A stretch of DNA of 8,741 bases, from IMG/VR virus record IMGVR_UViG_2713896788_000008. One strand, written 5' to 3'. Below are positions 1 through 8,741 of this stretch, one piece after another. Positions within the stretch are counted from its first letter, which is position 1, and every line of letters begins with the position of its first letter. Under the pieces are notes generated by a model. The model had not been told where the DNA came from. It saw nothing but the letters and a program-made list of their open reading frames with translations, and did not search any database. The DNA comes from a virus (lineage: Duplodnaviria; Heunggongvirae; Uroviricota; Caudoviricetes). The position numbers and the translations under genes were made by a program.

Positions 1-59
1 TGGCAGAATGTCTGGAGAAAAAAGGACTGTACCGGAGAGCAGCTGAACGATGGGCAAAA

Positions 60-299
60 GTGATGGTACAGCTAAGTGATGACCAGAAAAGAAAAGTGGC
101 GGCACAGAAACGAGCAGAGTGTTTGCGTAAGGCGCGCCGGACTCCGGTTTCACCGGTGAACCTGACCGAAATAAAACAAGCGGTCAACAGACTACATTCT
201 GAGTTGGGAATGGGATTTGAAGAGCGGCGGGTATTCCGACGATATAAAGGGACAGGAGAACAGAATACGTCCGGAAACGCGCGGTCAAAAAAATGCTAA
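60..299 (+). CDS. Small basic hypothetical protein (79 aa from the GTG at 60; ATG at 63). The reading frame is open back to the window start, so the true start may lie upstream of the window.
   Basis: ORF track 60..299; the same frame translated from base 3 has no stop (AECLEKKGLYRRAAERWAKV precedes the annotated start). Lysine/arginine-rich. Followed by a terminator hairpin at 340-362. No family recognised with confidence. Confidence 0.45.
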   Translation: MMVQLSDDQKRKVAAQKRAECLRKARRTPVSPVNLTEIKQAVNRLHSELGMGFEERRVFRRYKGTGEQNTSGNARSKKC

Positions 300-339
300 A
301 AAATATCTGAGAGCGTTATTGCCTGTTACCATAAGAAAA

Positions 340-362
340 AGCGACTTTAGTGGTCGCTTTTT
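340..362. terminator. Bidirectional rho-independent terminator between convergent genes
   Basis: Stem agcgac (340-345), loop tttagtg, stem gtcgct (354-359), with an A-run upstream (336-340) and a T-run downstream (358-362). It sits between the plus-strand ORF ending at 299 and the minus-strand ORF ending at 381. Confidence 0.6.
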
Positions 363-380
363 GTGTCATATATAAGTCGT

Positions 381-711
381 TTAAGTAAACCTGTCTGAAC
401 AGGTTCTCTGGTCGTGTTTGTCTTTGTTGGGTACAAATTGAGAATATTTTTCATTAATTAATCTTCTTCTGCAGGCTTCAATAACCCACGCTGAAAAATT
501 TCCTGAACCTTTCAGATCAAGAGCGATGTTAATTTGTTCAATCATCTGGTTTGGAAATCGGATGTTGCGGGTTGTTGTTNNNNNNNNNNNNNNNNNNNNN
601 NNNNNNNNNNNNNNNNNNNNNNNNNNNNNCGATGTTAATTTGTTCAATCATCTGGTTTGGAAATCGGATGTTGCGGGTTGTTGTTCTGCGGGTTCTGTTC
701 TTTGATGACAT
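381..711 (-). CDS. Ribbon-helix-helix-like small DNA-binding protein, interrupted by scaffold gap 580-629. If the duplicated 56 bp is collapsed, it encodes a 74-aa protein MSSKNRTRRTTTRNIRFPNQMIEQINIALDLKGSGNFSAWVIEACRRRLINEKYSQFVPNKDKHDQRTCSDRFT.
   Basis: ORF track 381..647 (contains X from the N-run). Reverse-complement reading of 686-711 continues in frame into the duplicated block with an ATG at 711..709. The pattern of a beta-strand (NIRFP), helix (QMIEQINIALDL), G-x-N turn and second helix (FSAWVIEACRRRL) is typical of Arc/MetJ/CopG-type RHH proteins. Coordinates as given include the artefactual gap. Confidence 0.55.
524..685. other. Assembly artefact: 56-bp perfect direct duplication (524-579 and 630-685) flanking a 50-N scaffold gap (580-629)
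   Basis: The sequence cgatgttaatttgttcaatcatctggtttggaaatcggatgttgcgggttgttgtt appears immediately before and immediately after the N-run, as expected for two overlapping contig ends joined with a spacer. Confidence 0.8.
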
Positions 712-1150: not shown

Positions 1151-1670
1151 ATGAAGGTTAATAAAAAGAAACTTGCCGAAATTTTCAACGTGGATCCGCG
1201 AACGATTGAACGCTGGCAGTCTCAGGGGCTCCCTTGCGTCTCCGGAGGTGGTAAGGGCGTTGAATCTGTATTTGATACCGCCACGGCAATTCAGTGGTAT
1301 GCGCAGAGGGAAGCTGATATCGAAAATGAAAAACTCCGTAAAGAGGTTGAGGATTACAGGGCTGCCAGCGAGGCAGATCTCCAGCCTGGGACTATTGAGT
1401 ACGAATGCCATCGACTTACGCGTGCGCAGGCTGACGCCCAGGAGCTGAAGAATGCCAGAGACTCCGCAGAAGTGGTGGAAACCGCATTCTGTACTTTCGT
1501 GCTGTCACGGATCGCAGGTGAAATTGCCAGTATTCTTGACGGGATCCCTCTCTCAGTACAGCGGCGTTTTCCGGAACTGGAAAACCGACATGTTGATTTC
1601 CTGAAACGGGATATTATCAAAGCCATGAACAAAGCAGCCGCGCTGGATGAACTGATACCGGGGTTGCTGA

Positions 1671-1696
<26 letters not shown>
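1151..1696 (+). CDS. nu1: Terminase small subunit (Nu1-like), 181 aa
   Basis: ORF 1151..1696. From about residue 50 onward (ADIENEKLR...LSEYIEQS) it matches lambda Nu1 as I recall it; the N-terminal winged-HTH region ([36 protein letters not shown]...) is related but clearly divergent. Lies 187 bp downstream of cosN, as in lambda. Overlaps the start of A by 26 bp. Confidence 0.9.
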
Positions 1697-5377
<3,681 letters not shown>

Positions 5378-8161: not shown

Positions 8162-8560
8162 ATGACGAAAGATGAACTGATTGCCCGTCTCCGCTCGCTG
8201 GGTGAACAACTGAACCGTGATGTCAGCCTGACGGGGACGAAAGAAGAACTGGCGCTCCGTGTGGCAGAGCTGGAAGAGGAGCTTGATGACACGGATGAAA
8301 CTGCCGGTCAGGACACCCCTCTCAGCCGGGAAAATGTGCTGACCGGACATGAAAATGAGGTGGGATCAGCGCAGCCGGATACCGTGATTCTGGATACGTC
8401 TGAACTGGTCACGGTCGTGGCACTGGTGAAGCTGCATACTGATGCACTTCACGTCACGCGGGATGAACCTGTGGCATTTGTGCTGCCGGGAACGGCGTTT
8501 CGTGTCTCTGCCGGTGTGGCAGCCGAAATGACAGAGCGCGGCCTGGCCAGAATGCAATAA
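8162..8560 (+). CDS. FI: DNA packaging accessory protein gpFI, 132 aa
   Basis: MTKDELIARLRSLGEQLNRDVSLTGTKEELALRVAEL... matches lambda gpFI. Shine-Dalgarno ggaggag at 8152-8158. The ORF-track start at 8123 falls inside the hairpin. Confidence 0.9.
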   Translation: MTKDELIARLRSLGEQLNRDVSLTGTKEELALRVAELEEELDDTDETAGQDTPLSRENVLTGHENEVGSAQPDTVILDTSELVTVVALVKLHTDALHVTRDEPVAFVLPGTAFRVSAGVAAEMTERGLARMQ

Positions 8561-8571
8561 CGGGAGGCGCT

Positions 8572-8741
8572 GTGGCTGATTTCGATAACCTGTTCGATGC
8601 TGCCATTGCCCGCGCCGATGAAACGATACGCGGGTACATGGGAACGTCAGCCACCATGACATCCGGTGAGCAGTCCGGCGCAGTAATACGTGGTGTTTTT
8701 GATGACCCTGAAAATATCAGCTATGCCGGACAGGGCGTGCG
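8572..8741 (+). CDS. FII: Head-tail connector protein gpFII, N-terminal fragment (gene runs off the window end); apparent GTG start
   Basis: Translation from the GTG at 8572 gives (M)ADFDNLFDAAIARADETIRGYMGTSATMTSGEQSGAVIRGVFDDPENISYAGQGV, matching the lambda gpFII N-terminus. Shine-Dalgarno gggagg at 8562-8567. Confidence 0.85.
   Translation, partial: MADFDNLFDAAIARADETIRGYMGTSATMTSGEQSGAVIRGVFDDPENISYAGQGV

Follow-up and report, generated by a model that had tools for sequence, protein, structure and literature searches.

The 56-base duplication in the stretch of DNA analysed here (the window; 8,741 nucleotides of the virus record IMGVR_UViG_2713896788_000008) is an assembly artefact and not a biological feature, and the DNA that carries it is an ordinary, already annotated segment of the Sp11 type. 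In the explanation that very probably holds, the window consists of three unitigs of a de Bruijn graph built at k = 64, the repeat nodes between them were omitted, and the two spacers of 50 N that separate them have no real DNA behind them. The window is the junction between the late region and the head genes of a lambda-like prophage of the Sakai Sp11 type from an enterohaemorrhagic, Shiga-toxin-type Escherichia coli. Its whole sequence is 99.8–99.9% identical to Sakai Sp11 and to the corresponding segments of many other O157:H7 genomes.

The window contains two N runs, at positions 580–629 and 843–892. Both are exactly 50 N long, so that the spacer length appears conventional and recurrent. 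The first run is flanked by a direct repeat of 56 nucleotides with 100% identity, of which the left copy (524–579) abuts the first N and the right copy (630–685) abuts the last N. The first-pass annotation had described a perfect 56-bp duplication around exactly 50 N, and a direct check of the sequence confirmed this description. The longest suffix of positions 1–579 that matches a prefix of the sequence starting at 630 is the 56 nucleotides themselves, and the other direct repeats across the 8.7-kb window are at most 34 nucleotides long and at most 88% identical. Because these next-best repeats are so much shorter and poorer, the probability that the 56-nucleotide repeat arose by chance is negligible. 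The flanks of the second run overlap by three nucleotides, with TGC at 840–842 and again at 893–895. The window is thus divided into contig A (1–579), contig B (630–842, 213 nucleotides), which begins with the right copy of the duplicate, and contig C (893–8741), which begins with the second TGC. The second run is the same artefact as the first, and the true sequence passes directly from position 842 to position 896.

The bare layout of copy, Ns and copy is also what a genuine tandem duplication of 56 bp with an unsequenced insert would produce. Such a duplication would disrupt the ylcI/ynfO gene in this strain, and the disruption would be real, since an insertion of 106 nucleotides shifts the reading frame (106 mod 3 = 1). 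However, both copies stop exactly at the edges of the gap, and the scaffold contains a second gap of equal fixed length that is also negative.

The three contigs map as overlapping neighbours in three finished genomes. In the finished-genome loci L002 and L003, contig A corresponds to positions 1501–2079 (with no mismatch in L003), contig B to positions 2024–2236, which overlap those of contig A by 56 nucleotides, and contig C to positions 2234–10082, which overlap those of contig B by three nucleotides and contain no indels. When both overlaps and both N runs are removed, the window is 8582 nucleotides long; positions in this shortened sequence are given below as collapsed positions. The collapsed window is colinear with Sakai Sp11 and with strain 1613, from which it differs by 13 and 11 mismatches, respectively, and by no indels. 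The first 1,246 nucleotides are free of mismatches, and the earliest difference, at collapsed position 1247, is far from both junctions. A query of 487 nucleotides that spans the collapsed first junction (window 250–579 joined to 686–842) matched all 30 finished genomes among the matches listed with 100% identity, over its full length and as a single piece. These genomes include O157:H7, O145 and O121 strains, and the junction is at least 99% identical in 420 records. The earlier proposals that two contig ends had overlapped and been joined by a spacer, and that the true sequence is 1–579 followed directly by position 686 onward, are therefore supported by finished genomes.

The same comparison speaks against a genuine tandem duplication, because the collapsed junction aligns in one piece to the finished genomes listed and the six finished-genome loci that cover this position (L001–L003 and L150–L152) contain no second copy. 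The 56-mer occurs once per contig in at least 120 IMG/VR contigs, and two copies of it in contiguous DNA were found neither in these IMG/VR loci nor in the finished-genome loci that were fetched. The comparison also bears on masking as an origin of the N runs, in which real bases would have been hidden by a quality filter or by whoever provided the data. Some of the sequence collections used are said to contain masked stretches; however, a mask replaces bases, whereas here the Ns and the 56 and three duplicated bases are all additional relative to three finished genomes aligned base by base, and no base of the aligned segments is absent from the window. Therefore, the Ns stand for no real bases, both spacers are insertions, the first at a position where finished genomes have no bases, and masking retains practically no probability.

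An IMG/VR contig from another genome (IMGVR_UViG_2671180524_000001; 8059 nucleotides, free of N) provides independent evidence for the arrangement. Its first base corresponds to collapsed position 524, where the 56-mer begins, its last base coincides with that of the window, and nine mismatches separate the two. It crosses the second junction without a gap. Therefore, the break at position 524 recurs in another assembly, and contigs B and C are truly contiguous.

The positions of the breaks are explained by the properties of a de Bruijn graph. If a block extending from L to R is shared between loci, the unique contig on its left ends at L + k − 2, and the unique contig on its right starts at R − k + 2. 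In 20 of the at least 120 IMG/VR contigs that contain the 56-mer, the sequence shared exactly with the window is a block of 70 nucleotides at collapsed positions 517–586, which is bounded by mismatches at 516 and 587 and lies inside the conserved 5' part of ylcI/ynfO. Contig A ends at 579, which is 517 + 62, and contig B starts at collapsed position 524, which is 586 − 62; therefore, both ends give k = 64. With the same k, the end of contig B at collapsed position 736 and the start of contig C at 734 predict a second shared block at 674–796, with mismatches at 673 and 797, although the right boundary of this block had already been seen in five loci before the prediction was made. Contigs with the exact 123-mer between a base other than A on the left and a base other than C on the right were then sought, and 26 independent ones were identified. 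This 123-nucleotide block is located just upstream of cos.

The lengths of the overlaps follow from the same value. For contigs A and B the expected overlap is 2 × 63 − 70 = 56 nucleotides, and for contigs B and C it is 2 × 63 − 123 = 3 nucleotides. The last 63 nucleotides of contig A (517–579) are the first 63 nucleotides of the 70-nucleotide repeat, which is shared with another prophage class. Contig B, the path specific to the Sp11 type between the two short repeats, has its first 63 nucleotides (630–692) in the 70-nucleotide repeat and its last 63 nucleotides (780–842) in the 123-nucleotide repeat, and the first 63 nucleotides of contig C (893–955) are the last 63 nucleotides of the latter. 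All four internal contig ends thus fit k = 64 exactly, with blocks at 517–586 and 674–796. If exact runs of at least 63 nucleotides are considered, the match of each class to the window within collapsed positions 480–900 is confined to its own block; for the first class (517–586), 17 of 21 loci have no other such run anywhere along the window.

Both classes occur together with the Sp11 type in a single genome. In the finished genome of strain 155 (NZ_CP018237.1), each of the three classes is represented with 100% identity. Its three loci were used to build a toy de Bruijn graph at k = 55–71, and the graph was also run with IMG/VR loci. The unitigs of the graph end at collapsed position 579, extend over 524–736 (213 nucleotides, which is contig B) and start at 734, with overlaps of 56 and three nucleotides, and this result is obtained only at k = 64.

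These results decide against two of the alternatives. The exact end of the repeat at the edges of the gap, the similar second gap, and the arithmetic by which 56 nucleotides follow from k = 64 and a 70-nucleotide repeat together make a genuine tandem duplication exceedingly improbable. The simplest reading, which was that of the first-pass annotation, is a plain unmerged overlap between two contigs directly adjacent to each other in a k = 57 graph; 56 is then equal to k − 1, and the overlap reaches both contig ends as it should. However, IMG/VR, with 2.9 million contigs, contains no copy of the 56-mer with another base at position −1 or +1, so that the graph has no branch there. Furthermore, the overlaps simulated at k = 57 are 42 and −11 nucleotides instead of 56 and 3, and the three-nucleotide overlap at the second gap is left unexplained. 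A graph with k = 57 is thus very unlikely. The part of the earlier reading that stands is the unmerged-overlap artefact; the part that falls is the direct adjacency of the two contigs, because at k = 64 both adjoin a node of 70 nucleotides and the 56 nucleotides are what is left over.

The three contigs would accordingly have been formed as k = 64 unitigs from an Sp11-type, lambda-like prophage of enterohaemorrhagic E. coli that had two exact blocks, of 70 and 123 nucleotides, in common with lambdoid prophages elsewhere in the source genome. The graph would branch at each block, so that the contig on the left runs k − 1 = 63 nucleotides into it and the contig on the right starts 63 nucleotides before its end. 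The blocks themselves were probably too short to be kept as contigs, and the repeat nodes may have been dropped by a length cut-off. A scaffolder would then have put the flanking contigs side by side with a minimum spacer, so that 56 and three nucleotides came to be written twice. The joins could have been made from read pairs or from a reference. Ordering of the same unitigs by alignment to a reference, with a fixed linker of 50 N, is possible, if somewhat unlikely. Both spacers are exactly 50 N long, whereas the contigs are really −56 and −3 nucleotides apart, and a contig of 213 nucleotides is short for paired-end scaffolding; however, a paired-end scaffolder with a minimum gap would produce the identical picture, and the layout does not discriminate between the two.

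Pattern scans of two contig collections (viral_contigs and genome_contigs) gave no hit for the junction with its 50 N, although such scans may not match N. Candidates for the assembly program are ABySS and CLC. ABySS allows even values of k, had a historical maximum of k = 64, produces contigs that overlap by k − 1, and uses a minimum scaffold gap of 50, and the maximum word size of CLC is 64. The literature searched provided no confirmation of 50 as the minimum-gap default of abyss-scaffold.

A third shared block should have left its mark on contig C. Most copies of the class with the 674–796 block, including that of strain 155, also share with the window an exact block of 76 nucleotides in the small terminase gene (window 1616–1691, collapsed 1457–1532). 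At k = 64 this block should split contig C; however, the window has no break there. The block is absent from two of the loci (L127 and L134). Either the source genome contains a subclass that lacks the block, or a later stage of the assembly resolved it.

The outer ends of the window adjoin single-base differences between classes. The window is preceded by C or G (position 0) and followed by C or T (collapsed position 8583, after window position 8741). In eleven paralogous loci, exact identity begins at position 1, and the preceding base is C in the Sp11 type and G in another class. Ends of the unique type, which would require one block that ends at 63 and another that starts at 8520, were also considered for the outer ends of the window; both scans returned no hits, and the shared type was adopted in their place. 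Ends that abut single-nucleotide differences fit a unitig common to two near-identical prophage copies, and the window looks like the complete scaffold of a segment of which the source genome has two such copies.

The differences from Sakai Sp11 are unevenly distributed, as 12 of the 13 form a cluster of about 1 kb in the large terminase gene (window 2261–3332, collapsed 2102–3173). The sets of differing sites relative to four close relatives overlap only partly. The cluster could reflect recombination between prophage copies or the popping of assembly bubbles between two copies.

The gene affected by the first gap lies on the minus strand at 381–711 and belongs to the YlcI/YnfO family (DUF3950). 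In the scaffold as written, a single frame is split into two open reading frames (381..647 and 538..711), both of which extend into the Ns. Collapsing the duplication restores an open reading frame of 74 amino acids with an ATG at 711..709 and a stop codon at 383..381; the true coding sequence is 711–686 joined to 579–381, which is 225 nucleotides encoding 74 amino acids and the stop. It is identical in DNA sequence to the annotated coding sequence of WP_001303940.1, named "YlcI/YnfO family protein", and the proteins are identical too. The earlier claim that the gene had been split artificially, and that a clean 74-residue frame would emerge on collapse, was thus borne out by an annotated protein.

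The restored protein matches the Pfam family PF13132 (DUF3950) with an E value of 1.8e-18 and 66.6 bits against a cutoff of 25, the NCBIfam model NF041551 (YlcI_YnfO_N) with 34.6 bits against a cutoff of 30, and PHROG 949, which is of unknown function. The ribbon-helix-helix (RHH) fold has a beta-strand at its N terminus and then two helices. No RHH family was found for the protein in Pfam at E ≤ 10, and a PDB sequence search gave no relevant match. A weak PHROG match links it to HicB-like antitoxins (E = 0.011). An AlphaFold single-sequence model of residues 10–74 (65 amino acids, the part encoded by contig A) is of low confidence, with a pLDDT of 52.6, and contains helices at model residues 10–22 and 30–45 and no strand. 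The succession of RNIRFP, a helix, GSGNFS and another helix is compatible with an RHH-like protein, and the label "RHH" that was given to the 74-residue gene is plausible as a tentative assignment. The titles and abstracts of the literature searched contained nothing that bears on the function of DUF3950, YnfO or YlcI.

The first approximately 50 residues of YlcI/YnfO are nearly invariant among about 150 prophage copies (L004–L149), and a sequence profile made from these paralogs would for this reason have too little depth. By contrast, the C-terminal tails belong to at least six unrelated classes, and the proteins are 61–77 amino acids long. The divergence of the tail classes after about 50 residues places a mosaic boundary inside the gene, at approximately window positions 455–470. 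The short exact block inside ylcI/ynfO exists because an invariant beginning is followed by unrelated tails.

The genes of the window are arranged in the order of the 3' part of pchB, the minus-strand YlcI/YnfO gene, cos, the small and large terminase subunits, the head–tail joining protein and the portal protein, followed by an S49 protease, the decoration protein, the major capsid protein, and homologues of FI and FII. The pchB segment (1–299, plus strand) encodes part of a PerC-family regulator (Pfam PerC, E = 5e-26), and the window starts 16 nucleotides inside the coding sequence that is annotated at 1485–1799 of L002 and L003. Between the convergent pchB and ylcI genes, a hairpin, AAAAAGCGACTTTAGTGGTCGCTTTTT, is present at 335–362 with runs of A and T at its flanks. 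From its sequence it looks like a candidate bidirectional terminator. The hairpin is absent from the list produced by a simple terminator scan, scanning of the junction region for promoters and terminators gave results at the level of shuffled sequence, and a comparison of the window with Rfam yielded no match.

The second gap is located about 70 nucleotides upstream of the cohesive-end site. The sequence at 964–975 is GGGCGGCGACCT, which we take to be the cohesive-end 12-mer (cos) of lambda. The small terminase gene occupies 1151–1696. Between the 12-mer and this gene, the region 1002–1126 contains the motif TCATGTCGG three times, at 1015–1023 and 1115–1123 in direct and at 1075–1083 in inverted orientation, and an inverted repeat of 25 nucleotides (1072–1096 and 1102–1126). 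The copies of TCATGTCGG and the inverted repeat are placed where the terminase-binding R sites of cosB would be. The repeats of this region differ from the lambda-type sequence of the Sp8-class copies.

The two classes that share the short blocks with the window differ from it in their packaging genes. The first class, with the 70-nucleotide block, comprises prophages in which the packaging module starts with an HNH endonuclease gene. The second class, with the 123-nucleotide block, comprises prophages with a small terminase gene annotated as nohD, among them Sakai Sp8; the start of this gene resembles Nu1 of lambda. The blocks are thus common to prophages with otherwise unrelated packaging modules: the terminase type of the window, the lambda-Nu1-like nohD type, and the type that starts with HNH. 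It is tentatively suggested that the first approximately 50 codons of ylcI/ynfO and the 123 nucleotides upstream of cos serve as linkers for the exchange of modules by homologous recombination among the lambdoid prophages of one genome. If this were the case, the breakpoints of the assembly would mark real mosaic junctions.

The result is of value mainly for curation and raises no biological question. Of the positions in the record, 159 are spurious, namely 100 N and 59 duplicated bases. As written, the record presents a real gene of 74 codons as two pseudo-fragments and places a spurious gap some 70 bp upstream of cos; any annotation of it would list the gene as broken, and any search for repeats would list the 56-bp "repeat". 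The rule that the overlap equals 2(k − 1) minus the length of the omitted node enables such gaps to be recognized and closed in the same assembly without new sequencing.

The arrangement belongs with the negative-gap or unmerged-overlap artefacts of short-read assemblies, which it matches in its fixed N spacer, in a duplication that reaches the gap from either side, in the restoration of the finished-genome sequence by collapse, and in contig ends that lie at k − 1 offsets from repeat boundaries. This class of artefacts is already well known, and the sole twist is the rule for the duplicated length. In the usual artefact the overlap is k − 1, whereas in the window the length of the repeat node left out has to be subtracted from 2(k − 1); therefore, two gaps in one scaffold can differ as greatly as 56 and three nucleotides. 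The DNA itself is like that of Sakai Sp11, with pchB, ylcI/ynfO, cos, the terminase and the head genes in the same order along the colinear sequence, and is distinguished from it by a few single-nucleotide differences, mostly in the large terminase gene, and by the artefactual extra positions. The protein encoded at the first junction is a member of the family of ylcI of DLP12 and ynfO of Qin from strain K-12, whose models it matches above their cutoffs, and within this family the C-terminal tail after approximately residue 50 differs between prophage classes.
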